Virus record (IMG/VR): IMGVR_UViG_3300013105_000023
From: an uncultured virus (IMG/VR IMGVR_UViG_3300013105_000023)
Taxonomy: Duplodnaviria > Heunggongvirae > Uroviricota > Caudoviricetes
Length of the DNA stretch: 20,000 bases
Direction: 5' to 3' (one strand)
This document shows positions 3-19,729 of the stretch, one piece after another. Each line of letters begins with the position of its first letter. The first letter of the stretch is position 1. A program made the translations under genes and the position numbers. The notes below the pieces were generated by a model. The model worked only from the letters and a program-made list of their open reading frames with translations. It was not told where the DNA came from and did no database searches.

Positions 3-569
3 CCATCGATGTCGGATCTCCTGGGTATCGGTCCGGAAGACATTGCCGCGATCCTGACGTCGTGGAACAACACGCTGAATGACATTCTGTCGGTGCCGAA
101 TGCCATCATCAACAAGGTGAATAGCTACGCGGACGAGGCTGTGTCATACTTGACGACGGTCGAGCGTGGACTTGACCAGATGATGGGCCAGATCACCGGT
201 ACCGTCGGGGCGTTCTACGGCGCTGTCGACAAGGTTAAGGACACGATCGGCACCATTGCCAACTTCCCGGAAAGCCTGGCATCCCGTGTGGGTCGCTTCC
301 TGGATAACGGCTTCATGTCACCAAACGGAGCGGACGGTTCCTTCCTGCTCAGTTCACACGGCGGCGGCAACGGGGACAGCCCCAGCAATGCCCTGGTCGG
401 TGGCGGAGCCCTCGGAGCGGCGGCCGCGGCGAGTTTGCTGTCTGCGGGGTCGCGAGCAGATCCGGGACCACAGCGTGGCGCCACGATCAAGCCAGTTCCG
501 GTTAACGTAGGTATCGTGAAGAATTCAGATCAAACGGCAACACTGCCAGTGGGAGTAATCGATGAGTAA
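3..569 (+). CDS. 5'-truncated hypothetical protein, probably virion/tail-associated
   Basis: Frame is open from the window start, so the true start is probably upstream. Amphipathic helical stretch then a Gly/Ala-rich region. Stop overlaps the next ATG (ATGAGTAA, 562-569). Function inferred only from position. Confidence 0.6.
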   Translation, partial: PSMSDLLGIGPEDIAAILTSWNNTLNDILSVPNAIINKVNSYADEAVSYLTTVERGLDQMMGQITGTVGAFYGAVDKVKDTIGTIANFPESLASRVGRFLDNGFMSPNGADGSFLLSSHGGGNGDSPSNALVGGGALGAAAAASLLSAGSRADPGPQRGATIKPVPVNVGIVKNSDQTATLPVGVIDE

Positions 570-1242
570 TTTAGGTGTTCGTTCCTACGCCAACTCGATG
601 TTGATCGAGAACCTGTTCCGTCAGCGGGCCATGCCAGACCTGCTGCCGAACGTGAAATCCTTCACGACCCGCATCCTGATGCCGAGCGTGAAGATCGTCG
701 AGGATGATTGTCACACGTTGATTGGCCGTAACGTCTCGGCCGATGACTATTCCATGGTGGGCTTGCTCGCCTTGGATACCGACGAGATCATCGATGAAGC
801 GTACGTCGTGGAACGTTACAAGAAGAACATTTTCACGATTCGCGTGCGTGACACGTGTGCATGTACCAGTACCGGTGGCATTTGTCGTAAGTGCTTGCAC
901 GGGACGTTTATCCGTTTGGGTATCAAGGACGATGTTCCGGCGGTGGGTTCCACCATCCGCATGCCAGTGGAGTCCTCGTCGTACCTGAACGCTCTGGCCA
1001 AGACTTACAGTGGCGCCCTGCTCGGGGTAAAACCCATGGCGGCAGCGCCATTGCCGATCCGTCCTGATTTATACGGTGGGATGGTGACCCACGAGGAAAT
1101 GACAATGGTTATCCGTGAGATGGCGTCTTTAAAAATCCCAACAGATGAGGTAGACTACCTCAATGGGATTCACGACAAATTCGAACGTGCCCTAGCGATT
1201 GTTGCTTACTACGGAGTCTACGGTAATGCGTTTAGAAAATAG
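562..1242 (+). CDS. RNA polymerase beta-prime-like fragment (bridge-helix end plus Zn site 2), 226 aa
   Basis: [20 protein letters not shown] resembles RpoC [45 protein letters not shown] resembles [21 protein letters not shown]. C50, C101, C108 and C111 match E. coli C814/C888/C895/C898 with the same C-x6-C-x2-C spacing. GGGAG SD upstream. Confidence 0.75.
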   Translation: [226 protein letters not shown]

Positions 1243-4200
1243 TCTTGGCGGGGATAACATTTACACCAACTTTCGGGTGTACGTGGAAGGGGTAGAAATC
1301 CCCTTCTCTTCAGCCAATATCTCCAACTCCTATGGTGGCCTCCCAACGGCCACCGTTTACGTTGCCCCTTGGCGTGGCTTCACGGAGATCACGAAGGGAT
1401 ACTTCCCGAAAATCCAGATCTTCTACCGTGACTTCAACCAGGGCCTGGCACCGTACGACGTTAAACGGCTGATCAGCACCATTCCGGATATTGAAGGTGC
1501 CGAAGAACGACTCGAAAACGCCAAAGAGACCTTCAACAAGGTCGAGCGTAACGCGTACAAACTGCTGTTCGACGGCGTTATTGCCAGCGTCCAGGACTCC
1601 AAGAGCCTGGGTGGCGACGGCGGCCAGTCTTCTATGGCGTTCAACTGCGTCCACCCTCACTATTTGCTGAACGAAATCCTCTTCAAGTTCATCGGGACCA
1701 ACCCGGAGACCGAGACGGCGAAGGATTCTGCGTTCGGGATCATGGTCGACGGCGGTAACGTCGGTTCAGTCTTTGCCATTGAGCAAGCCTTGGCCGGTGT
1801 CCACGAGCCACGCGACGGGGATAAGACCCTGGAAGCCGGTGGCAGTGACACGTCAGTGCTCTCAGAAGGCATGCAGGACAACTATTGGCGCCTTCAAGGC
1901 ATGCCCGGTGTCATTGTGGCCATGTGGAACTCCCTGAAACGCTCGGCTTACTCCGCGGCGTCGCAGGAAGACAAGTCGATCATGACCAAAATGTACATTC
2001 CGCTGTTAGAAGACGGCTTGAAGTACTTCAACCGCATGACGGGCCACCCGGTAATCGAAGGAGCGATCCAAAAGGACGCTCAGATCGCCCCGACGCCTGC
2101 TCCAACGGTGACGCAGACAGCAGAAAGCAACACGACACCAACCGGAAAGCTTCCCGAGCCGCCAAAAGGCACCCTCGGACAGAAGTTCATGTCGGATAAA
2201 GGTAAAAAAGAGCTGATTGAGTTCTCTGAAGGCCGTCGTTACCGTCTTTACGACGATGCTACCGGCAAAGAGATCACTTTCGCGGCCGATGCAGTGGGTA
2301 CGCCGACCATCGGTGTAGGTCATGCCGTGAAGAAAACGGATACCACCTACGATAAAGTCACTCTTTCGGACTTGGACATCGATAAACTGCTGAGCCAAGA
2401 CGTGGCGTCGGCGACACAGGCTGTAAACAACCTGGGATTAACCCTGTCACAGGGTCAGTTTGACGCTCTCGTGGACCTGACGTTTAACGTTGGCCCTGGT
2501 GCCAAGGGCGGTAAGGACGGAGCACTGTGGCAGGCAAGCGGCGAACCGTCAACGATCGTCCGTTTGATCACCGAAGGGAACACCCAAGGCGCTGCTGACG
2601 GCTTCCTCGCGTGGACCAAAGCGGGTGGATCGGTATCTCAAGGTCTGGTGACCCGCCGTTCACGCGACCGTTCATTCTTCCTGGATGCTCCGCTGCCCTC
2701 CTCCCAGGAGTTGGCAAACCAAGCCGCCGCGGCCAAAGGGACCACCGAAGAGATGTCGAACAACAACGGCAAACTCGTCCCGGCCAACCTGAATGGCTTG
2801 ATGCCGCGTGCCATGGCCGAACAGCTGCTGCACATCATGTCCAACGATCTGATGTCAGGCGGTACCGGTGAAGTGACGTCGTTTGGTTCGTTCATTCAGC
2901 AGTTCCTGCAGATCATCGAGTACGATCACGTCATCCTAAGCTCGCCGGCAGTACTGGGTATCGCGGGCCGCCGTGAAGTCATCGACCACGTGTTTAAACC
3001 GAAGATGTTTGCGTACTATTCACCGATCTGTAACGTCATTCTGCCACACATGTACGAATCGATGAGTGTGAACCTCGGGACAGACCAAGTGCCTTCCCGT
3101 GTGATCTACAACGCGATGCCGTTCCAAGCGGACTCGGCCATGAATGCCACGACCGATGTGTTCGCCCACAACTTCATTGCCCCACACTCTGTCCGTAAGG
3201 CGCTGGCCAACGGCGGTAACCTGTCCAAGACGTTGCTCCCAATGCGTGCGACCCCTGGCAAATACGAGTGGGCGAGCGGTGTGCGGACGGCGGACGGTAA
3301 CCTGCCATTCTGGTACAGCGTGCTGTCTCAGCAGTCTGAATCAGCGAACGTCGGCGACTTGGCAGACAAAGACACCGGTGCCCGCCTTAAAGCGGCATGG
3401 TTGAAGCTGTATCCAGAAGACCCGAACCTGAACCCGTGGGACGTGACGCTGGCGGGAATCAACGCGTATGAACGCTTGTTCTTCACCGGTGTCGACGTGG
3501 AATACTCGAACATCTACTCGTCCGCCCGCTCTGGCGTCGTGGATGGCGTGTTCAACCCGTTCATCATCCCGGGTTACCCAATGGACGTGGTCGATCCGTC
3601 GCCGCTCCGTGAGTCATACCACGGTTTCTGCACCAGCGTGAACCACTCAATCGATGCATCGGGCTACTCTTCGACCAACATTGGGATGAGCTCTGCGTAC
3701 ACCTTCTCGGAATTGGCCACGTGCTACATCCCGGGAACGTATCCGTGGCTGCTCGCTCAGTTGAAGATGGATGAAAACCTGAAGATGTACGGCAATACGC
3801 CTGCTTTCCAGCGTGCCTGCCAGTACTACGTTGACGTGCTCGGCGTCGGTGCAGCAGATCCGACCATCCTCGAAGCGTACTCAACCGGTAGACCAATCCC
3901 GGTGACGCGTAACATGGGTGTCTGGGAGATCGGTGGCTCAGAGGCCGTGAATGATCCGTCTCGCCCAACGCTCTACACGACGGCACTCGGTAACCTGAAC
4001 CTCGTGGCCCGCAACATCTCGACGCTTCTGGATGTTCAGATGGAACACAGCGTTCTGGCTGAAACTTTCGTGGATATCGACATGTGGAACCAAGGGTCAC
4101 CGACCGTGGAAGAAGTCCGCAAGGGTCCGTGGGTGAATGACGGCAAGACCGCATCGAGCAGTACGCTGCGGGGTCGCGACATGGAGTCTTCGGCGTTCAT

Positions 4201-5049: not shown

Positions 5050-5751
5050 ATGAATGATTTAGGCGACAAGGATCTCGAGCTATTCCACGCGTGGAAAAAC
5101 ACCGGGGATAAGAAGGCTCTGAAGAACCTGGTGAACAACCTGAAGCCGATCATCCAGAGTGAGACGACGAAGCTCTCTGGAAGCTTGCCTGCCTCGGCCT
5201 TGAAAGGTGAGGTCGTCTCCTGGACGATTCGTGCTATCAAGGATTACGATCCGAGCAAAGGCACCAAGCTGTCGACCCACGTCTATAACTGGACGCGTAA
5301 GGCCAAGCGCCTGAACTACACGTACCAGAACCTGGCGAACATGGGTGAGGACAAACAGCTGCAGTACGGCAAGTACAACCTCGCGGTGACCAACCTTGAG
5401 GATGAACACGGCCGGGAACCGACCAACAAGGAAATTGGCCAACGGCTGGGCTGGTCGGAGAAAGAAGTCGAGAAGTATAAAGGCCTGATCTTCCAGGATC
5501 ACTTTGAGTCCGGCAATCTGTACTCTGCCGAGCACTCACGGTTCAACTCGGACCCGCTGAAACTAAACTACATTAGAGACAAGCTGACCCCGGACGAACT
5601 GAAGATCCTTGATGGACGAGCGAATAAGATCCCTGCGGGTGATATCGCTCAGTCACTCAACATGAACATCAACCAGTACAACTATGCGTCCGGTAAGCTG
5701 ACAAGTAAAGTGCAGCAACTACTATCGGAGTATGGAACGTGGGACAACTAA
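5050..5751 (+). CDS. Phage sigma70-family sigma factor (regions 2, 3, 4; group-3-like size)
   Basis: GDKKALKNLVNNLKPII (2.1), AIKDYDPSKGTKLSTHVYNW (2.2-2.3), LEDEHGREPTNKEIGQRLGWSEKEV (region 3), KLTPDELKIL...AGDIAQSLNMN (region 4 HTH). GAGG SD. Confidence 0.9.
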   Translation: MNDLGDKDLELFHAWKNTGDKKALKNLVNNLKPIIQSETTKLSGSLPASALKGEVVSWTIRAIKDYDPSKGTKLSTHVYNWTRKAKRLNYTYQNLANMGEDKQLQYGKYNLAVTNLEDEHGREPTNKEIGQRLGWSEKEVEKYKGLIFQDHFESGNLYSAEHSRFNSDPLKLNYIRDKLTPDELKILDGRANKIPAGDIAQSLNMNINQYNYASGKLTSKVQQLLSEYGTWDN

Positions 5752-11739: not shown

Positions 11740-12248
11740 GATCCTGGGAGGCGGCGCTCTGCTTCCTTCCAGATTTTCGAATCGTATAACCCTACCGATC
11801 GCCCGTCGGGCCCCAGCAACCAGCACAAATCCACCGGACTAAACGTCGTCGCCAGAACTGCTTCATAGATCGCCAGCAGGAATACCGACACTTGATACAT
11901 GCTCATGGTGCCTTCTTTGAACTCTCCGGTGAGCTTCGCCGGTGCTATCGACAGCACAACGACATCATCTTCCTGCGTGACGTAGAAAGGACGGCAGCCA
12001 TCGAGCTGGACTTCAGCGGTGAGGAGGAACTGGTCGTTGGAAGTGAGGGTTTTGGCGTCAAGGATATCGAGTTTGTCTTGAATCATGGCTAAAAAATGGG
12101 GGTAGGCATCGCCGCGGTCCGGTGTGTCGGACAGCTCAAAGATGATCGGTTGGGAGCCACGCCAATACAGATCAATGCCGTCGGATGGGTATGTGTTGCT
12201 TTGGAACAGTTTGACGCCCTCCAGGGGCGTCTGATTCATAATATTCAT
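11685..12248 (-). CDS. Hypothetical protein, 187 aa
   Basis: Start 12248 gives an ATGA overlap with the kinase stop (12245-12247). 3' end overlaps the holin-like gene convergently by 55 nt. Confidence 0.7.
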   Translation of the reverse strand: MNIMNQTPLEGVKLFQSNTYPSDGIDLYWRGSQPIIFELSDTPDRGDAYPHFLAMIQDKLDILDAKTLTSNDQFLLTAEVQLDGCRPFYVTQEDDVVVLSIAPAKLTGEFKEGTMSMYQVSVFLLAIYEAVLATTFSPVDLCWLLGPDGRSVGLYDSKIWKEAERRLPGSYFLDLLATTDATLVDPK

Positions 12249-12835
12249 TTCAGTCTCGGGAGGATGCGTGCATCCGCCCAGGCACAAACCCTGTCACGCA
12301 AATCTTCCAGCGTCCCGGAGTTAAAGATGACGGCGTCAAACTTCTCGTCGGGTTGCGGTTTCTCGCTAATGTGGGCTGGCGCCTGAGCGTCAACGTTCGG
12401 GTTAAAGACCTTCATCGTCGTGGAACCCCACCCTACTGTAGAAGGGAATTCGCCGACGAGAATGATCTCATTGTCGAACCGCATGTCAGGGATCGCGATG
12501 ACGTCAGCCTCTGATTTCGCTGCAGCTCTGGTAAAGAAGTCGGTCCAGATCTCGGGGTAAAAAACATCCCGGAAGGATTCGGTACCGATCTTCTGTTGAA
12601 TTTCACGAGAGGTCAGGCCACGGGCCGTCGGAATCACACGCTTCTTGCCGGCGGAGGTGTTCACGTCCTCGTCCGTCATGTCAAAGACGTAGCGGGCCAT
12701 ATCTTTGATGGGTTTGGCGAACGGGATGATGTCACAGGTGACGCCACGCATGGAGAGATACGCTTTGAGCATCGCAGCGCTGGTGTCTTTACCGTGTTGG
12801 GCTAAGCCGTTAATTCCGACGATTAGTTTAGGCAT
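12245..12835 (-). CDS. Deoxynucleoside monophosphate kinase (T4 gp1/T5 dnk-like)
   Basis: P-loop IVGINGLAQHGKDT, FAKPIK, TSREIQQKIGTESFR, IPDMRFDNE, HISE, NSGTLEDL. GAGGA SD before ATG 12835. Confidence 0.92.
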   Translation of the reverse strand: MPKLIVGINGLAQHGKDTSAAMLKAYLSMRGVTCDIIPFAKPIKDMARYVFDMTDEDVNTSAGKKRVIPTARGLTSREIQQKIGTESFRDVFYPEIWTDFFTRAAAKSEADVIAIPDMRFDNEIILVGEFPSTVGWGSTTMKVFNPNVDAQAPAHISEKPQPDEKFDAVIFNSGTLEDLRDRVCAWADARILPRLK

Positions 12836-12856
12836 TTCTGGGTCCTCTTTGGGATG

Positions 12857-12886
12857 ATTATACGGGATAAAAACAGGAGAGGTCAA
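12857..12886 (-). promoter_or_regulatory. Host sigma70-type promoter for the dNMP kinase gene
   Basis: Minus strand reads TTGACC (12886-12881), 18-nt spacer, TATAAT (12862-12857), upstream of the SD and ATG 12835. Confidence 0.7.
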
Positions 12887-12896
12887 TCTCCTGTTT
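12867..12896 (-). terminator. Intrinsic terminator-like hairpin
   Basis: Perfect inverted repeat AAACAGGAGA-ttgacc-TCTCCTGTTT (12871-12896) running into TTTTTAT on the minus strand, just after the 12909 stop. Confidence 0.65.
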
Positions 12897-12908
12897 CTTC
12901 CCAGCATG

Positions 12909-13268
12909 TTAGCCGATCTTGATTTTGAACGGGCTATCTTGTTGAGTTTGTGACGATTTCGGTTCGAGCATATTTTTCAATTCTTCCTGCTCTTTTTCCG
13001 ACAAGGGAATACCGGTGGAAGAACGGGCCAACTCATTGCCAACGTCCACCAAGGAGACGCTCGTGTCCAGACCGAAGCTTTCCACTTCGGACGATACAGA
13101 GAGTTCCTCAAGGACTTGATCAATGTCCCGGCGCTTACAGCGTAGACGCAGGTCGCTGGCCAGTTTCGGATGCTTCAGGATGTACTCCTGGATGGCCTCT
13201 TCGCCCCATCCCCGTATGCGACTACCTTCGGTAATCGACAACTCCAGTGTTACTTTTGACTTAATCAT
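12909..13268 (-). CDS. Hypothetical protein, 119 aa
   Basis: ATGA overlap with the upstream gene. Followed by the terminator hairpin. Confidence 0.7.
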   Translation of the reverse strand: MIKSKVTLELSITEGSRIRGWGEEAIQEYILKHPKLASDLRLRCKRRDIDQVLEELSVSSEVESFGLDTSVSLVDVGNELARSSTGIPLSEKEQEELKNMLEPKSSQTQQDSPFKIKIG

Positions 13269-13834
13269 TCAGGATCTTCCGATAATAGCACGGACGAGAT
13301 ATCAACGTTACTGAATTCTCTGTCGATACCGCCGAGGGTTGAAGAACGGAACGGACTGGAAGACTTCAGCGGGCCGGCATTGCCAGACCGTGACTCATTC
13401 CTGTCGCTTGTTGTCTCACCGGGGCGAACATAACCGGGGTAAGACGATGACGAACGTCTGGGTTCAAGAATGTCGCTACTACGGGTTTCAGAGGTTTTAT
13501 CCTGCTGACGCTCTTTGTGCAACTTCATGATGTACGCGTCTTCGGCATCCTTCATTGACTCGCTGATCTGGATGAGCAGAACGGGAGAGAACGAGTTTTT
13601 CACTGCCGACTCTTCCTCTTCGGAAGGCTTACGGCGAGCAGATGGGAAGAGTGACCAGACCAGCCCAGAGACCAGAGATGCTAAGAGGGTGAACTTTGCG
13701 ATCTTATACATGTCGCGATCGAGCTTGAGATCCTCGAGCACTTTATAAGATGCCAATCCGACGATAGGTGCTGTCCCGATCGCCGCTAAACAACCATTTT
13801 GGAAGCGGTTGTGCAATGCCTGCTTGTTAAACAT
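13265..13834 (-). CDS. Hypothetical membrane protein, 189 aa
   Basis: Two N-terminal hydrophobic segments (CLAAIGTAPIVGLASY; IAKFTLLASLVSGLVWSLF) and a Ser/Arg/Glu-rich C-terminal tail. AAGGGG SD. Confidence 0.7.
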   Translation of the reverse strand: MFNKQALHNRFQNGCLAAIGTAPIVGLASYKVLEDLKLDRDMYKIAKFTLLASLVSGLVWSLFPSARRKPSEEEESAVKNSFSPVLLIQISESMKDAEDAYIMKLHKERQQDKTSETRSSDILEPRRSSSSYPGYVRPGETTSDRNESRSGNAGPLKSSSPFRSSTLGGIDREFSNVDISSVLLSEDPE

Positions 13835-13857
13835 AAGTGCCCCTTTATCTCTACTCT

Positions 13858-13868
13858 TTACTTATACC
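13858..13868 (-). promoter_or_regulatory. Candidate phage promoter motif GGTATAAGTAA
   Basis: Intergenic, 23 nt before ATG 13834. Near-identical copy at 19753-19763 with the same spacing. Confidence 0.55.
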
Positions 13869-13897
13869 AGTAAATTGCCCGTCCCTGGGCTGGTTAA

Positions 13898-15100
13898 TCA
13901 CAGTGAAAGATCGCCGAGTTCGGACAATCCATCCATCTTGAGGTCCGCCGTCAGGTAACTGGAGATCTCCGTTTCCTGCGGGGCCACTTGCACGTTTTCC
14001 GAGTTGGTGTAGGTCACCATCCACGGCATTGGGTTCTTCTTACGGCCGTATGCTGGCAGGATATGCAACTGATCCAGCAAGACGTCTGCCAGGTACTCGA
14101 TGTACGCAGAGATCGTCTCCAGGTTGATTCCCGGCATGCTTCCGTCTTTGAACAGATAGCGGGCCCAGCGAATTTCCTGCTCAACAACCGACTTCACCAG
14201 TGGCGTGATGCGAGCCTGTTGCACCCGGGCAATCTTAGCCCACTCCTGTCCTTCTGCACCGCTGGCAAGCTTGTTCAGCATCCACGTGGTCGACGTCTTG
14301 TGCAGACTCTCGTCGCGGCAGATGAACTTGATTACCTTGGCGTTACCTTCCATCAGCTCACGCTCATTGAACGAGAACGAACAGGCGAAGGATACGTAGA
14401 AACGCAGGGCTTCCAGCGTATTGATGTCGGCCAGCATGTAATACGCGTCGTTCATCAACTGTGGCATGTTGATGTCGAACGTCTGCAGATGTTTGTGCTG
14501 AGGGCGGGCAGCCATCGGGTTCGCCAGAATCTCACGCATCGCGTTCGGATCAGCCTGGTTCACGATAAAGCGACCTTCACCGAACAGGGACCACATGTCC
14601 ACGTTACGGATGAAACGGTCATAGTTACCGGTCAGGTTCAGTGTACGCTCGGCGATCTCGGGGTTAATCACGATGTCATCGAAGATTACGCCAGGGTCCA
14701 CGTACAGGTTACGAATGATGTGCGTGTACGAGCGGGAGTGAATCGTCTCAGAGAATGCCCACGTCTGGAACCAGTTCTCCAGCTCCGGCAGGGTGATGAC
14801 TTTGCCGAACGCCGCTTCGAGACCCCGCGACTGGACGGAATCCAGCAGCGTTTGATACTTCAGGTTGCTGGTGAACAGGTGTTTCTCGTGAGCCGACAGC
14901 TTTTCGTTGAAATCGATACGGTCTTTCGACAGGTCGATCTCTTCCGGACGCCAAAAGAAGCCCAGCTGTTTCTGCGTGAAGCTTTCATCAATGTGCTCGT
15001 ACTTCAGGCGGTCAAAGCGGGCAACGTTCAGGCCTTCACCGAAGAACATCGGCTGCAGGGTGTTATCAACCTGGTTAGGGTTGAAGGTAGAATAACTCAT
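13898..15100 (-). CDS. nrdB: Ribonucleotide reductase class Ia beta subunit
   Basis: FFWRPEEIDL, YQTLLDSVQ, FSETIHSRSY (radical Tyr), LEALRFYVSF, RDESLH, VAPQETEISSY. Start 15100 has a GGAGG SD and ATGA overlap with the MazG-like gene. Confidence 0.97.
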   Translation of the reverse strand: MSYSTFNPNQVDNTLQPMFFGEGLNVARFDRLKYEHIDESFTQKQLGFFWRPEEIDLSKDRIDFNEKLSAHEKHLFTSNLKYQTLLDSVQSRGLEAAFGKVITLPELENWFQTWAFSETIHSRSYTHIIRNLYVDPGVIFDDIVINPEIAERTLNLTGNYDRFIRNVDMWSLFGEGRFIVNQADPNAMREILANPMAARPQHKHLQTFDINMPQLMNDAYYMLADINTLEALRFYVSFACSFSFNERELMEGNAKVIKFICRDESLHKTSTTWMLNKLASGAEGQEWAKIARVQQARITPLVKSVVEQEIRWARYLFKDGSMPGINLETISAYIEYLADVLLDQLHILPAYGRKKNPMPWMVTYTNSENVQVAPQETEISSYLTADLKMDGLSELGDLSL

Positions 15101-15603
15101 GCTAAATCCGCCTCCTTCACAAAGACGCCATCGATCATTTTGCCTTTGCGGTCTTTGATTTCGTTCCACGCCATGTCAACGCACTCTTCCAGCGTTGCCC
15201 GCTGTTCTTCCGCTGCACGACGAAGCAAGTAGACGATCTCGTTGATTGAGAACTCGATATCAGAAACCAAGCCGCCTTTATCGACCAGCACCACTAAGTG
15301 GCCCAGTTCCGCATACAGTGAGAGACGCACGGTGGAACACATGGTGTCGCTACCGGTGTAGGTTTCAGCTTTTGCGGTACGGAATTCAACGCCTTTCTGG
15401 GCGGCCAGGATAACCATGACCACGAAGGTATCACCAATACCGTCTTTGGCCAGGTCCAGCTTACCACGGGCGGCGCCACCGGCGTGCTCACCATTCTCTT
15501 CAAACAGCTTATCGAACTGTTTCGTCGGGGTAGAGCCTTCAATCAAATTACGGTCTGCAGCCCAGCCGCGGATAAGTGTTGCGTATTCGTTCAGGGTTTT
15601 CAT
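15097..15603 (-). CDS. MazG-like nucleoside triphosphate pyrophosphohydrolase
   Basis: WAADRNL...QFDKLFEENGE...KDGIGDTFVV...LEECVDMAWNEIKDRKGKMIDGVFVKE, characteristic of phage MazG-like proteins. Confidence 0.88.
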   Translation of the reverse strand: MKTLNEYATLIRGWAADRNLIEGSTPTKQFDKLFEENGEHAGGAARGKLDLAKDGIGDTFVVMVILAAQKGVEFRTAKAETYTGSDTMCSTVRLSLYAELGHLVVLVDKGGLVSDIEFSINEIVYLLRRAAEEQRATLEECVDMAWNEIKDRKGKMIDGVFVKEADLA

Positions 15604-15606
15604 CGA

Positions 15607-16233
15607 TTATTTCCAGTTCAGAAGGTTATCGGGAACTAACGGAGCTTTCTTAGATTTGGCACGCTTGGCATTCAGCTTCTCGTAGCTACGAGTCTCTTGC
15701 TCCAGCGTGAACAGGCCCAGCTGATAGGACAGCAGGAACTTCAGGGTAATGGCGGACAGGGCGGACAGGTGGCTCTTGCCCATTTCATCCAGCGGTTCTT
15801 CACTTGCCAGCGGGTGCGTGTCACGCGTTTGGATGGTCATCTTGGTGATGTCACCCACGTTGCCGAACTGGAAGTGCTTGTCGTACGCCCACATGTCGTT
15901 CTTGTGGTTGTTGTTGGAGAACGGGAAGCACGTGATCTGCGGGACTTCATCCATCGGAACAATCAGGATAGAAATCACGAAGCGACCGTCGTTGTCATTC
16001 ATACCGTCGAACTGCAAGGTGACCGGACCGAGCTCTCGCATCTTGTCCATGTTCAGGGTGCCGCTGGTGGCAGTGTACGCCAGCAGTCGGTCTTTGTCGG
16101 TTTCCGACAGCACCACGGCACGGGATTTGGCCACAGTGTTAAGAACCAGGCCGACACGGGTAACGTGGGCAGTGTTCATGTAAGGGAGCGTTGTTGCATC
16201 ATCCATCAGATCGTGGATTTTATTAAACGGCAT
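15607..16233 (-). CDS. Hypothetical protein, 208 aa
   Basis: GAGGA SD. Codon usage like nrdAB. Basic C-terminal motif KLNAKRAKSKKAPL. Confidence 0.8.
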   Translation of the reverse strand: MPFNKIHDLMDDATTLPYMNTAHVTRVGLVLNTVAKSRAVVLSETDKDRLLAYTATSGTLNMDKMRELGPVTLQFDGMNDNDGRFVISILIVPMDEVPQITCFPFSNNNHKNDMWAYDKHFQFGNVGDITKMTIQTRDTHPLASEEPLDEMGKSHLSALSAITLKFLLSYQLGLFTLEQETRSYEKLNAKRAKSKKAPLVPDNLLNWK

Positions 16234-16510
16234 AGGAAATTCCTCTTTTATAACTCACGACCGCGAGGGCCGGATTAGTAACAGTCGGACTGCATTTGCC
16301 CGACCGAGCATGGCGGAAGTGAGAGTATACCGCATCTCCAAAGGCAGAAACTACCAGAATCGTCTCAGGATCCACCTTAACTTCAACGGTGTCTTCCTTG
16401 ACCAAATGGGATTTCGGCATTGGGTAAGGCTTTTTGATGCGGAAATAAATCTTTGCCGCATGTCGGATGCACAGTTTGTCATCCATTTCCGAGAGTTCTA
16501 CAGGACGCAT
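16223..16510 (-). CDS. Hypothetical protein, 95 aa
   Basis: ATG abuts the upstream stop (16511-16513) and the end overlaps the next start, tiling the operon. Confidence 0.65.
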   Translation of the reverse strand: MRPVELSEMDDKLCIRHAAKIYFRIKKPYPMPKSHLVKEDTVEVKVDPETILVVSAFGDAVYSHFRHARSGKCSPTVTNPALAVVSYKRGISYAV

Positions 16511-16807
16511 TTAGATACCACGCGGGGTCTGAGGCACCATGGCACGCTCGACGAGTTCACGCAGTTCAGCCATCGTGTCTTCACAGGAACGCCCGCGGCT
16601 GAACACGATGATCTCATCAGGTTCACCATCTTCTGTCACAGCACCGTAGTCGGCATATACCGTTGTGCCAAGGCCGGGGTTATCTTCCATGGAGATCTTA
16701 ACGCTGCGGGTTTTAAAGAAGTTGGCATCGTCATCGTTTATGTTCTTGACGGTGATTTCTTCCTGGCGGCCATTTGGACGCAGGAATACAGTTGCTTGAA
16801 TAGGCAT
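16511..16807 (-). CDS. Hypothetical protein, 98 aa, acidic
   Basis: GGAG SD upstream of ATG 16807. Tiles the operon after nrdA. Confidence 0.75.
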   Translation of the reverse strand: MPIQATVFLRPNGRQEEITVKNINDDDANFFKTRSVKISMEDNPGLGTTVYADYGAVTEDGEPDEIIVFSRGRSCEDTMAELRELVERAMVPQTPRGI

Positions 16808-16816
16808 GGTGACTCC

Positions 16817-16843
16817 AAAGAGAAAGGGTCCCGAAGGACCCTT
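16817..16843 (-). terminator. Intrinsic terminator with UUCG tetraloop after nrdA
   Basis: Minus strand AAGGGTCC-TTCG-GGACCCTT (16843-16824) followed by TCTCTTT, 5 nt after the nrdA stop. Confidence 0.8.
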
Positions 16844-16848
16844 GAGGA

Positions 16849-19149
16849 TTAAATCTTGCAGGCGCCGCTTTCGCAGCCATCATCGGCCTCTTCCACTACC
16901 TCGAGTTCTGGCAGCGGTTTGTCCGCGTAGGCTTTGTCATCGGAACCGTCACGGGTGTTGTGATAGTACCAGGTTTTGACACCGAGCTTGTAACCGTAGA
17001 TCAGGTCTTTCAGCACTTGCTTGGCCGGGACCTTGCCTTCCGGGAACTTCGTGGGGTCGTAGTTGGTGTTCGCCGAGATCGTCTGGTCGACGAACTTCTG
17101 CATGATTGCCACCTTCTGGATGTAGCCGACGTTGTCTGGCATCATCCACGTGGTTTCGTACGCGTGGCGAAGTTCCGTCACACCGGGAACCACTTGGCGG
17201 AAGGAACCATCTTTCGACTGCTTCACGGACACCAGACCACGTGGCGGCTCAATACCGTTGGTGGCGTTGGAGATCTGAGAAGAGGTCTCGCTTGGCATCA
17301 GAGCCGACAGCGTAGAGTTACGCATGCCGTACTTCAGGATGTCAGCACGCAGACCTTCCCAATCGCAATGCAGAGTGGCGTCCACGACGGTGTCGACGTC
17401 CTTCTTGTACGTGTCGATCGGCAGGATACCTTTCGAGTACGTCGTTTCGTGGAAGCCCGGGCACGCACCGTCTTCTTTGGCCACGTTAACCGAGGCACGC
17501 ATCAGATGGTACTGCAGCTGTTCGAACAGACGGTGGGTCTCAGTGTTGGAGACACCGGTGTCGGAGTACTTCAGGCCTTTCTTCGCCATCCAATACGCAT
17601 AGTTGATCACGCCTACACCCAGGGTGCGACGGTAATCGGAACCTTGCTTAGCAGACAGAACCGGATAGTCCTGGTAATCCAGCAGTTCGTTCAGGCCACG
17701 GACCAGCAGATCTGCCGCAACCGGAATCTCTTCTTCGGTCAGCACGCCCAGGTTGAACGCCGCCAGGGTACACAGGGCGATCTCACCGGAACCGTCATTC
17801 ACGTATTCCATCGGTTTGGTTGGCAGAGCGATTTCCAGGCACAGGTTGGACTGGCGGATCGGTGCGACCTTCGGATCGAACGGTGAGTGCGTGTTGCAGT
17901 GGTCAACGTTCTGGATGTAGATACGACCGGTGGATGCACGTTCAGAAGCCAGCAGGCCAAACAGTTCAGTCGCAGAGTACGTCTGGCGACGGATGTTCGG
18001 GTCCGCTTCATAGAGCTCATACAGGCGGGCGAACTCTTTCTGATCGGCGTAGAACGCATCCAGCAGGCCCGGGACGTCAGCCGGCGAAAAGCAAGAGATC
18101 TTGCCATTCGACAGTAAACGCTGGTACATAAAACCGTTCAGCTGAATGGCGTAATCCAGGTGGCGTTCACGGTTAGCTTCGGTACCGCGGTTGTTCTTCA
18201 GGACCAGCAGATCCATGATCTCGTAGTGCCACCCGGCGTAGAACAGCGTTGCTGCACCACCACGGACGCCACCCTGAGAACAGGACTTGACGGCAGCCTT
18301 GAAGAGCTTGATGAACGGGATCAGACCGGTGTGATTGGCTTCACCGTTACGGATCTTCGAGCCGAGCGCACGGATACGAGCAATGTCCAGACCGATACCG
18401 GCACGTTGGGAGACGTACTTCACGATCGCTGAAGAAGCCGCGTTGATGGAGTCCAACGAGTCACCGGCAGAGATCAGCACGCAGGAAGAGAACTGACGGG
18501 TCGGCGTACGCATGCCGGCCATGATCGGTGTCGGCAGGGAGATCTTGAAGGTTGACAGGTAGTCATAGAACTTCAGGACGTAGTCCATACGGGTTTCTTT
18601 CGGGTAACGAGAGAACAGACACGCAGAGATCATCATGTTGGCCATCTGCGGGCTCTCGTGCAGGGTGCCATCGACACGGTCCTGAACCAGGTATTTACCC
18701 TCGAGCTGTTTCACTGCAGCGTGAGCATACAGGAAGTCACGCTCGTGATCGATCGCTTCACTCATGACGTCCAGCTCGTAATCGCCGTAATCCTTCAGGA
18801 TTTGCTCGTCGTACAGGCCTTTCGACACCATGTGTTTTACAAACAGTGGGAAGTGCATCGGTTCAAACTGACCGAACACTTCTTTGCGGATACCAAACAT
18901 CGCGGCACGGGCAGCCATGATCGCGTAGTCTGGTTCATCGACGGTGATCAGGTCGGCAATCGCTTTAACAACGGCACGGTGCAGGTCTTTGGTGGTAACA
19001 CCCTCGACCACGTGCAGCTTAACGGTGAGCTCGACCTGAGAGGTGGAGACGTTTAAGTTCTCCCCTGCCCAAGTAATAACGCGACCAATCTTCTCCCAAG
19101 TGAAGGGTTCTTTGGTGCCATCGCGTTTAATTACCTTGATATCTTGCAT
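16849..19149 (-). CDS. nrdA: Ribonucleotide reductase class Ia alpha subunit
   Basis: ATP cone VIKRDG, PTRQFSSCVLI, SCSQGGVRGG, QSNLCLEI, IALCTL, MPSETSSQISNATNGIEP, TWYY, C-terminal CESGACKI. Uninterrupted reading frame. Confidence 0.98.
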   Translation of the reverse strand: MQDIKVIKRDGTKEPFTWEKIGRVITWAGENLNVSTSQVELTVKLHVVEGVTTKDLHRAVVKAIADLITVDEPDYAIMAARAAMFGIRKEVFGQFEPMHFPLFVKHMVSKGLYDEQILKDYGDYELDVMSEAIDHERDFLYAHAAVKQLEGKYLVQDRVDGTLHESPQMANMMISACLFSRYPKETRMDYVLKFYDYLSTFKISLPTPIMAGMRTPTRQFSSCVLISAGDSLDSINAASSAIVKYVSQRAGIGLDIARIRALGSKIRNGEANHTGLIPFIKLFKAAVKSCSQGGVRGGAATLFYAGWHYEIMDLLVLKNNRGTEANRERHLDYAIQLNGFMYQRLLSNGKISCFSPADVPGLLDAFYADQKEFARLYELYEADPNIRRQTYSATELFGLLASERASTGRIYIQNVDHCNTHSPFDPKVAPIRQSNLCLEIALPTKPMEYVNDGSGEIALCTLAAFNLGVLTEEEIPVAADLLVRGLNELLDYQDYPVLSAKQGSDYRRTLGVGVINYAYWMAKKGLKYSDTGVSNTETHRLFEQLQYHLMRASVNVAKEDGACPGFHETTYSKGILPIDTYKKDVDTVVDATLHCDWEGLRADILKYGMRNSTLSALMPSETSSQISNATNGIEPPRGLVSVKQSKDGSFRQVVPGVTELRHAYETTWMMPDNVGYIQKVAIMQKFVDQTISANTNYDPTKFPEGKVPAKQVLKDLIYGYKLGVKTWYYHNTRDGSDDKAYADKPLPELEVVEEADDGCESGACKI

Positions 19150-19729
19150 TGATTTCTCCCATAATCTTAATCAAGTAGTCCGGGGTGATCGGACCGGTAA
19201 AGAAGTCGCCCCGGGCGATCTTGCTAAAAGCAAACAGGAACATGCCTTCAGCCATCTCCGGGGACCAGCCATAGATAGGAAGGCCGTCTGGATTGTGAGC
19301 CCAGCCCTCCCCTTTAGAATGCAGTAACTGCGTTGCCTCGACTTGGCACATCATGCTGTCGACGCGTTTAACTTCGGGGTAAACCGAGTGAACCCACTCA
19401 GGATCTAACTGGAATGCACGGTAGACACGATTCTGAACCTGCTCTTCGATCTTCGCGTAGTCCGGGAGGAACGGTTTGAATGGCGCCGGGATGTCCTGAA
19501 TGAACGCTTCCGAGCCGTCGTGAACCAAACCGATCATCTGCAGTTCTGGTGGGAGCTGGGCTGCCACGTGAACCGAGTGTTCTGCCACGGAGTACGGGAA
19601 GTTGGTGTGGCCGTTGAAACGGTTAACCATGGAAAGAGCATGAGCAATGTTCTCGACAGTCAAGCCTTCGAGGTCATCGGATACTAAAGAAAAGTATTGA
19701 CCGTTGTAGGTCTCAATCATACCGGACAT
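19127..19729 (-). CDS. HD-domain phosphohydrolase (YfdR/YfbR-like 5'-deoxynucleotidase family)
   Basis: IAHALSMVNRFNGH...YSVAEHS...GLVHDGSEAFIQDIPAPFK...VKRVD. AGGAG SD. Overlaps the nrdA start by 23 nt. Confidence 0.9.
   Translation of the reverse strand: MSGMIETYNGQYFSLVSDDLEGLTVENIAHALSMVNRFNGHTNFPYSVAEHSVHVAAQLPPELQMIGLVHDGSEAFIQDIPAPFKPFLPDYAKIEEQVQNRVYRAFQLDPEWVHSVYPEVKRVDSMMCQVEATQLLHSKGEGWAHNPDGLPIYGWSPEMAEGMFLFAFSKIARGDFFTGPITPDYLIKIMGEINARYQGN

Follow-up and report, generated by a model that had tools for sequence, protein, structure and literature searches.

In a 20,000-nucleotide stretch of DNA from an uncultured member of the Caudoviricetes (IMG/VR record IMGVR_UViG_3300013105_000023; hereafter the window), an open reading frame (ORF) at 562-1242 on the plus strand encodes a 226-amino-acid protein whose homology to the beta-prime subunit of RNA polymerase (RNAP) is more than chance. 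The homology runs from the C-terminus of the bridge helix through the Zn-site-2 (Zn2)/sandwich-barrel hybrid motif domain to the base of the trigger loop. The original prediction, made from the sequence alone, had placed a stand-alone Zn2 module with an eroded trigger loop at 658-1020; the module is real, but these positions correspond to residues 33-153 of the larger ORF, which also holds a fifth cysteine, C99, that is not conserved among the family. This family is named here after its member gp7 of Salmonella phage Arash, which is 72% identical to the protein of the window. The features of the locus are as follows.

551..555 (+): GGGAG, likely ribosome-binding site, 6 nt ahead of the ATG at 562
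562..1242 (+): stand-alone RNAP beta-prime Rpb1_5-core paralogue of the Arash gp7 family, 226 amino acids plus stop
562..681 (+): residues 1-40, two helices (9-19 and 29-39), equivalent of the bridge-helix region by predicted-model secondary structure and structure alignments
688..915 (+): residues 43-118, Zn2/sandwich-barrel module with ligands C50, C101, C108 and C111, by cysteine invariance and a structure match (VIA)
946..1026 (+): residues 129-155, trigger-helix-1 equivalent, by alignments to beta-prime-C (a separate polymerase gene product of related phages, described below) and motif conservation
1063..1230 (+): residues 168-223, C-terminal four-helix part with a near-invariant E208, by model helices and VIA alignments

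The start codon at 562 overlaps the stop codon of the upstream gp6-like gene (567-569) by 8 nt, and the 3' end of the ORF overlaps the ATG of the downstream hub gene at 1226 by 17 nt. The four cysteine codons could be read directly in the sequence (C50, 709-711; C101, 862-864; C108, 883-885; C111, 892-894), and the resulting four-Cys site is predicted to bind Zn. The two flanking motifs first read from the letters are indeed kept, as V-E-D-D-C-H-T at residues 46-52 and I-R-V-R-D-T-C-A-C at residues 93-101, and the stretch said to lack the trigger-loop histidine, residues 129-151, is free of histidine. At the N-terminus, a G5-x-R7 motif, in which R7 is nearly invariant in a 32-member alignment, appears to be placed where the bridge helix would begin. 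An antisense ORF opposite the gene (571-900, minus strand, 109 amino acids) found no support and looks like a by-product of coding sequence with 52-57% G+C.

Relationship to the beta-prime subunit

As a single sequence, the protein retrieved beta-prime at the first rank in a phmmer search of the PDB (E 0.0069, query 45-117 on chain 832-905). A 32-member family profile matched beta-prime at E 7.7e-7, and among the 60 matches listed all were beta-prime or other RNAP chains aligned over the same region; an independent profile built from 60 distant members reached E 6.7e-10. The protein also matched the beta-prime-C encoded by phages of its own clade, by BLASTP (E 2e-8) and by hhalign (probability 98.1%, E 8e-14, 143 columns), and in the profile alignment, which starts at position 30, the segment K-S-F-T-T-R-I-L falls on the C-terminus of the bridge helix of beta-prime-C. 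The family profile scored 38-56 bits on the beta-prime-C proteins of the clade versus 32 bits for the best bacterial beta-prime in the PDB, and this higher score on the clade's own subunit fits an old duplication within the clade. No Pfam family was found for the 226-amino-acid protein at E <= 0.01 nor at E <= 10, and the gathering score of PF04998 (RNA_pol_Rpb1_5) was not reached, whereas the same family scores 55.2 bits on the clade's beta-prime-C versus a cut-off of 28.5. Searches of PHROGs, NCBIfam and PADLOC gave no match to the protein; the distant member P0036 gave an NCBIfam match, to a beta-prime equivalog (E 0.0044), that stayed far short of the cut-off, and Protein Atlas returned no usable match for either the protein or P0036.

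The structural comparison that had been proposed against RpoC led to the same subunit. An AlphaFold2 (AF2) model of the 226-amino-acid protein had a mean predicted local distance difference test score (pLDDT) of 85.7 and a predicted template modelling score (pTM) of 0.81. Among the 50 Foldseek matches listed for this model, all were largest subunits of RNAP: beta-prime itself or the equivalent chain of plastids, cyanobacteria or phages (best E 1.8e-4). The core match in VIA placed model residues 43..166 on Mycobacterium smegmatis beta-prime 883..1157 (Z 9.7, root-mean-square deviation (rmsd) 2.7 A over 88 residues), and a longer collinear alignment placed model residues 1..213 on Escherichia coli chain 778..1308, with the long alignments extending to model 206-214 on chain 1308-1315. 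A VIA search of 48,161 chains, made independently of Foldseek, returned M. tuberculosis beta-prime as the sole match with Z >= 8 (Z 8.9, rmsd 5.6, 146 residues; model 6..210 on chain 860..1209), followed by matches to MoeA-type proteins that cover 40 residues of the barrel sub-domain. Matches in the BFVD viral structure library were pieces of phage RNAP, and chains of the AR9/phiKZ type matched weakly, both by structure (7ogp_D, Z 3.3) and by the distant-member profile (7s00_D, E 0.028). Thus RpoC was found by profile as well as by structure, with the cysteines aligned to the Zn2 region of beta-prime and not assigned to an unrelated Zn finger.

By these sequence-profile and structure matches, the protein is collinear with beta-prime over the bridge-helix region, the Zn2/sandwich-barrel, the base of trigger helix 1 and, in its four C-terminal helices, the helical part beyond the trigger loop and jaw. 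The N-terminal half of the bridge helix, at first thought unrecognisable, is not wholly so, since the structure alignments start at model residue 1-6 on the bridge-helix region. With bacterial beta-prime (E. coli chain about 778-1315), the protein shares the four-Cys Zn2 site, the E-D-D-C-x-T and R-x(4)-C motifs, the sandwich-barrel fold and the collinear flanking helices; it differs in standing alone, in modelling the bridge-helix equivalent as two short helices, and in lacking the catalytic residues of the trigger loop together with the trigger-loop tip, the second trigger helix, the jaw and the other domains.

Loss of catalytic features and the intact beta-prime-C of related genomes

The column of the trigger-loop histidine of beta-prime-C falls on S150 or G151 of the protein, depending on the alignment (profile alignment versus hhalign), and the catalytic residues are replaced by a family motif, A146-x-T148-Y149-S150-G151-x3-G155. 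A length of only 226 amino acids and the lack of other parts of beta-prime likewise support the original view that the protein is not a normal catalytic segment. We compared paralogues in related genomes, namely G001, which is the nearest virus record and 99-100% identical to the window over this locus, Salmonella phage Arash, Vibrio phage D181 and five more distant genomes that are 92-100% complete. In G001, Arash and D181, a separate ORF of 610-628 amino acids was found by Pfam RNA_pol_Rpb1_5, and the same separate beta-prime-C was found in the five distant genomes, so that each of the eight holds one family gene and one intact beta-prime-C (603-635 amino acids by ORF call). Each of the eight beta-prime-C proteins has a Zn knuckle of its own, and its trigger loop is canonical and ends in T-K-H. 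In the five distant genomes tested, the family profile matched exactly two places per genome, namely beta-prime-C and the family gene itself. PF04998 and PF00623 together detected a single RNAP set per related genome, with Rpb1_2 and Rpb1_5 lying in other, complete genes.

Since an intact beta-prime-C with its own Zn2 site and trigger loop was present in 8/8 genomes, the comparison supports the view that the protein is a non-catalytic paralogue of beta-prime and not the missing piece of a split subunit. Among the possibilities first raised, an inactive paralogue is therefore supported by the loss of catalytic residues and by the coexisting intact copy, which had been suggested as a check, and a highly diverged catalytic subunit is disfavoured by that same copy. 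The clade's beta-prime-C (Arash gp216) is the nearest relative by score, shares D-C-H-T and the Zn knuckle with the protein, and is encoded in the same genomes. Unlike the protein, beta-prime-C retains G-V-I-A-A-Q-S-x-S-E-V-L-T-Q...T-K-H and about 390 further residues, and its gene adjoins a helicase gene, whereas the family gene lies among tail genes. Beta-prime-C may be a member of the 'mReC' lineage of phage RNAPs (Weinheimer and Aylward 2020).

The clade's polymerase appears to comprise a fusion of beta and the N-terminal part of beta-prime (1525-1532 amino acids), whose gene comes immediately after that of the portal, and the separate beta-prime-C, whose gene is followed by the helicase gene; the loci concerned are L009/L012 (Arash 130093-134670; G001 about 40391-40798) and L004/L007. 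In Arash, Gp206 is a 1525-amino-acid ORF directly after the portal gene, and it is probably such a beta/beta-prime-N fusion because its C-terminal end carries Rpb1_2. A second sigma gene, gp196, is also present in Arash.

Family variation, gene neighbourhood and virion proteome

A scan of 1.84 billion protein representatives with the family profile yielded 231 cluster representatives at E <= 1e-3, of which 107 reached E <= 1e-30; the majority are 205-300 amino acids long, and a phage collection contained only 4 isolate genomes with the family gene, making the family almost entirely uncultured. For conservation, the protein and 149 listed representatives were aligned to the profile; P0173 (1940 amino acids), an unrelated SprB-repeat protein, was left out of the counts. 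The four Zn-ligand cysteines are invariant in 32/32 aligned members; in the wider set, 130 representatives span all four columns and 127 of these have the four cysteines, in keeping with the original reading of the ligands as retained. Alignment around the trigger-loop equivalent showed that the family keeps A-x-[TS]-[YF]-S-G-x3-G and not the catalytic histidine: T or S at 148 occurs in 133/139, Y or F at 149 in 136/139 and G151 in 135/139. This motif, together with the cysteines and E208 (137/139), is the most conserved feature of the family.

The segment between C111 and T148 is the variable part. It spans 36 residues in the protein of the window, and relatives carry insertions just upstream of the trigger-helix-1 equivalent, at about residues 115-137. 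Among 132 representatives, 106 have more than 45 residues between the equivalents of C111 and T148; the lengths are <=45 in 26, 46-80 in 11, 81-130 in 84, 131-250 in 6 and >250 in 5. Laminin_G_3 (LamG), a concanavalin-A-like lectin fold, was matched in 6 of 14 long members scanned, above the gathering score in P0050, P0130, P0137 and P0174 and below it in P0138 and P0142; the domain sits at the insertion site, except in P0050, where it is a C-terminal appendage. A common insert of ~70 amino acids was the sole source of the 4 non-RNAP matches among the 60 listed for the distant-member profile against the PDB, and all four were phage tail proteins, matched weakly: a capsule depolymerase (E 0.0014), 'Gp44' (0.016) and two tailspike chains (0.074).

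We compared 24 viral loci, 22 of which contain the family gene (215-296 amino acids). The remaining two, L034 and L035, encode phage proteins of 476-481 amino acids without a Pfam match (L034:6945-8390, L035:6957-8387), whose C-terminal third holds a bridge-helix-like, a Zn2 and a trigger-like segment with a lysine at the position of the trigger-loop histidine. They share no synteny with the others and were rejected as family members; they were treated instead as parts of beta-prime from a different phage polymerase lineage, which they probably are. In the window, the family gene is accompanied by the following genes.

3..569 (+): 3' part of the gp6-like gene, 188 amino acids; the full gene encodes 470 amino acids in a near-identical contig (L014:6596-8008)
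1226..4744 (+): hub/cell-wall hydrolase gene, 1172 amino acids, with the start chosen from the sequence and from the annotation of Arash gp8
5050..5751 (+): sigma-factor gene of the same operon, 233 amino acids, Pfam Sigma70_r3 at E 1.3e-8

A hub homologue lies directly downstream of the family gene in 20 of the 22 loci; of the two exceptions, L015 is cut off by the end of its contig, and in L022 the sigma gene comes directly after the family gene, with the hub 5 kb upstream. The gp6-like gene is directly upstream in 19 loci (16 by BLASTP and 3 more by profile, with all five profile-tested loci positive), that is, in every locus whose upstream gene was examined. The sigma gene is kept in the operon in 21/22 loci, and the conserved order is gp6-like gene, family gene, hub, gp9, sigma, gp11, gp12 and a gp6-type baseplate wedge gene. 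The family gene is thereby embedded in a conserved tail-baseplate morphogenesis block and never stands beside RNAP genes.

The hub protein contains Pfam Phage_lysozyme at 357-489 and the phrog_465 endolysin-like peptidase domain at 1060-1178 (numbering from a TTG-1199 start), and in a low-confidence model its residues 5-151 resemble phage hub and tube proteins as well as those of contractile injection systems (VIA Z 8-10); a profile of the hub N-terminus gave no significant match in the PDB. Hub relatives are 708-1192 amino acids long, and the shorter ones match over about 450-550 residues only. The gp6-like protein had no family match, and its profile gave no significant match in the PDB; the C-terminal half showed weak coiled-coil-like matches to trimeric coiled coils (E 0.014-0.03), and the protein may be a tail-lumen or hub-plug component. 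Its N-terminal domain is conserved, many residues within 1-190 being invariant, and the C-terminus ends in a Gly/Ala-rich tail. The sigma protein also matched the NCBIfam FliA/WhiG family at E 7.5e-11, below its cut-off. Elsewhere in the window, a nucleotide-metabolism block on the minus strand (12245-19729) encodes a deoxynucleoside monophosphate kinase, the small and large (ATP cone) subunits of a class Ia ribonucleotide reductase, a MazG-like pyrophosphatase and a 5'-deoxynucleotidase-like phosphohydrolase; a 414-amino-acid ORF antisense to the reductase small-subunit gene (13988-15232, plus strand) found no support and looks like a by-product of G+C content.

A virion proteome is available for Arash (PMC10585845). 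In sucrose-gradient-purified particles, gp7 was detected with 77% coverage, 7 unique peptides and 202 spectra (Table 2 of that article), its peptides per length being similar to those of its neighbours gp6 and gp8, and in this mass-spectrometric study it was re-annotated as a 'structural protein'. The most detected protein in the same particles was the RNAP 'beta' Gp206, with Gp216 (beta-prime-C) and the sigma factor Gp10 also prominent, the latter with 100% coverage and 24 unique peptides (PMC10585845). As RNAP subunits are among the most detected particle proteins, the polymerase is suggested to be packaged in the virion, and, given the complete coverage of Gp10, the sigma factor of the baseplate operon may be a packaged one.

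A polymerase core as a candidate baseplate component

We consider it on balance probable that the protein is a beta-prime paralogue exapted as a Zn-stabilised, baseplate-associated structural protein. This interpretation is drawn from the loss of the catalytic features, the fixed place of the gene in the tail block with translational coupling to gp6 and the hub, the presence of a homologue in particles and the display-type insertions. In this model, an ancient, non-catalytic paralogue of the clade's own beta-prime-C would have been cut down to a rigid core, namely the C-terminal end of the bridge helix, the sandwich-barrel clamped by Zn, the base of trigger helix 1 and what comes after the trigger loop and jaw in the way of helices. 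Having left transcription, the protein would now act in the tail baseplate as a structural adaptor stabilised by Zn, and it would be produced alongside the gp6-like protein and the hub with its lysozyme domain. An outward-facing position is proposed for the loop that precedes the trigger loop in beta-prime; it is here that most relatives carry an added tailspike-like or lectin-like module, so that the protein of the window would represent the minimal form. Contractile tails are known to include small proteins whose genes lie between those for the hub and the tape-measure region, P2 gpX and Mu gp43 being examples by gene position. Such hub-proximal proteins are likewise encoded directly upstream of the hub and coupled to it, but no sequence or fold similarity between them and the 226-amino-acid protein was found, so the likeness is positional only. 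Exaptation as a tail structural protein, first suggested from the overlap with the hub start, is the best-supported function in view of the synteny, the Arash virion data and the tail-like and LamG insertions, although it remains inferential; the 17-nt overlap is real but is a weak argument on its own.

Several observations weigh against this interpretation. The placement of the protein in the tail is indirect, and no known baseplate or tail fold was found among its structure matches listed in Foldseek, VIA or BFVD, which is itself not evidence that the folds differ. The Arash particle list comprises 116 proteins, including ribonucleotide reductases, primase and helicases, and its authors allow for carry-over of abundant enzymes (PMC10585845); because the proteome holds such evidently non-structural enzymes, the label 'structural' is weak evidence. 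The hub model that anchors the neighbourhood is of low confidence (pLDDT 51.6), the tail-protein matches of the ~70-residue insert are weak, and two of the LamG matches lie under the Pfam cut-off. For the LamG-bearing members, the surrounding genes were not recovered: two viral-contig scans gave no relative, and a metagenome scan gave no LamG-bearing locus. Among the 10 loci of the latter scan, two were ordinary family loci with gp6 and the family gene (and the hub in the one not cut by the contig end), four had long ORFs (676-1420 amino acids) that match the Zn2 region only and are probably real polymerase subunits, and four had no ORF match at the thresholds used. Finally, with the sigma gene in the same operon and RNAP abundant in the Arash proteome, late expression could equally serve the packaging of transcription factors.

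This last point bears on the main alternative, itself rather unlikely, in which the protein is an RNAP accessory or decoy factor that binds the phage beta/beta-prime-N or the host beta subunit through a retained F-G/Zn2 docking surface, and either holds the packaged polymerase inactive, aids its assembly or poisons assembly of the host enzyme, being made late for packaging with RNAP and sigma. In its favour, the homology to beta-prime is genuine and strongest to the beta-prime-C of the clade; phage RNAP co-occurs with the family gene in all eight genomes, the sigma gene shares the operon of the latter in nearly all loci and follows it directly in L022, and RNAP subunits and this sigma are prominent in the Arash particle. 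In addition, according to a report by Markov et al. 1999, beta-prime requires its Zn2 site to enter the core enzyme. However, LamG and tailspike-like inserts of 70 to about 680 residues are ill-suited to an RNAP interface, and a polymerase-bound factor is disfavoured because display-type insertions would make little sense on it; moreover, the gene stays beside gp6 and the hub and never beside RNAP genes, the corresponding site of the phage enzyme is already filled by the catalytic beta-prime-C, and binding to RNAP is hypothetical. A distinctly improbable intermediate is that a baseplate or hub component keeps the ancestral polymerase-docking surface and tethers or gates the packaged RNAP and sigma at the tail exit, coupling ejection to the first transcription.

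The translational coupling to gp6 and the hub and the universal adjacency to gp6 would also suit a non-virion morphogenetic factor, one that helps gp6 or the hub to assemble, as chaperone or scaffold, and is absent from the finished particle or present in traces only, and detection in a contaminated list such as that of the Arash virion is no proof of residence. We regard this as unlikely: the Arash homologue was recovered with 77% coverage and 202 spectra from purified particles, and the display-type insertions in relatives suggest a protein that stays on the particle. The least probable reading, to which we give almost no weight, takes the protein as a piece of a split or second RNA polymerase that supplies the bridge-helix/Zn2/trigger-loop segment. 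Split beta-prime genes do occur in jumbo phages, and the N-terminus of the protein starts where the bridge helix would start. The split fragments of the phiKZ/AR9 type are likewise small phage proteins with only part of beta-prime, but they complement each other into an active enzyme, whereas here the enzyme is complete without the 226-amino-acid protein. The idea is largely refuted by the intact beta-prime-C with its own Zn2 site and trigger loop in each of the eight genomes, by the single RNAP set per genome (with only two profile places in each of the 5 tested) and by the missing trigger-loop histidine.

The catalytic subunits of multisubunit RNAPs are among the most conserved proteins, and free-standing, non-catalytic paralogues of their core are rare. 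Our literature searches found no description of a beta-prime-derived tail protein, and no such protein is described in the portions considered of the paper on RNAP-encoding Caudovirales (mReC, PMC7481178). Because the family is absent from Pfam, PHROGs and NCBIfam, its members are currently annotated as 'hypothetical' or 'structural'. If the exaptation into the baseplate is true, a paralogue of the RNAP core would have become part of a virion, which would be exaptation of a new kind; should the tethering variant hold, the polymerase in the head would be physically connected with a paralogue of itself in the tail. The internal paralogue could also help to root or date a deep-branching phage RNAP lineage, and the insertion-tolerant display site, with its Ig-like and LamG modules, may bear on host recognition. 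Arash-like phages, with a cultured host, offer a tractable system in which the protein could be located by cryo-electron microscopy.

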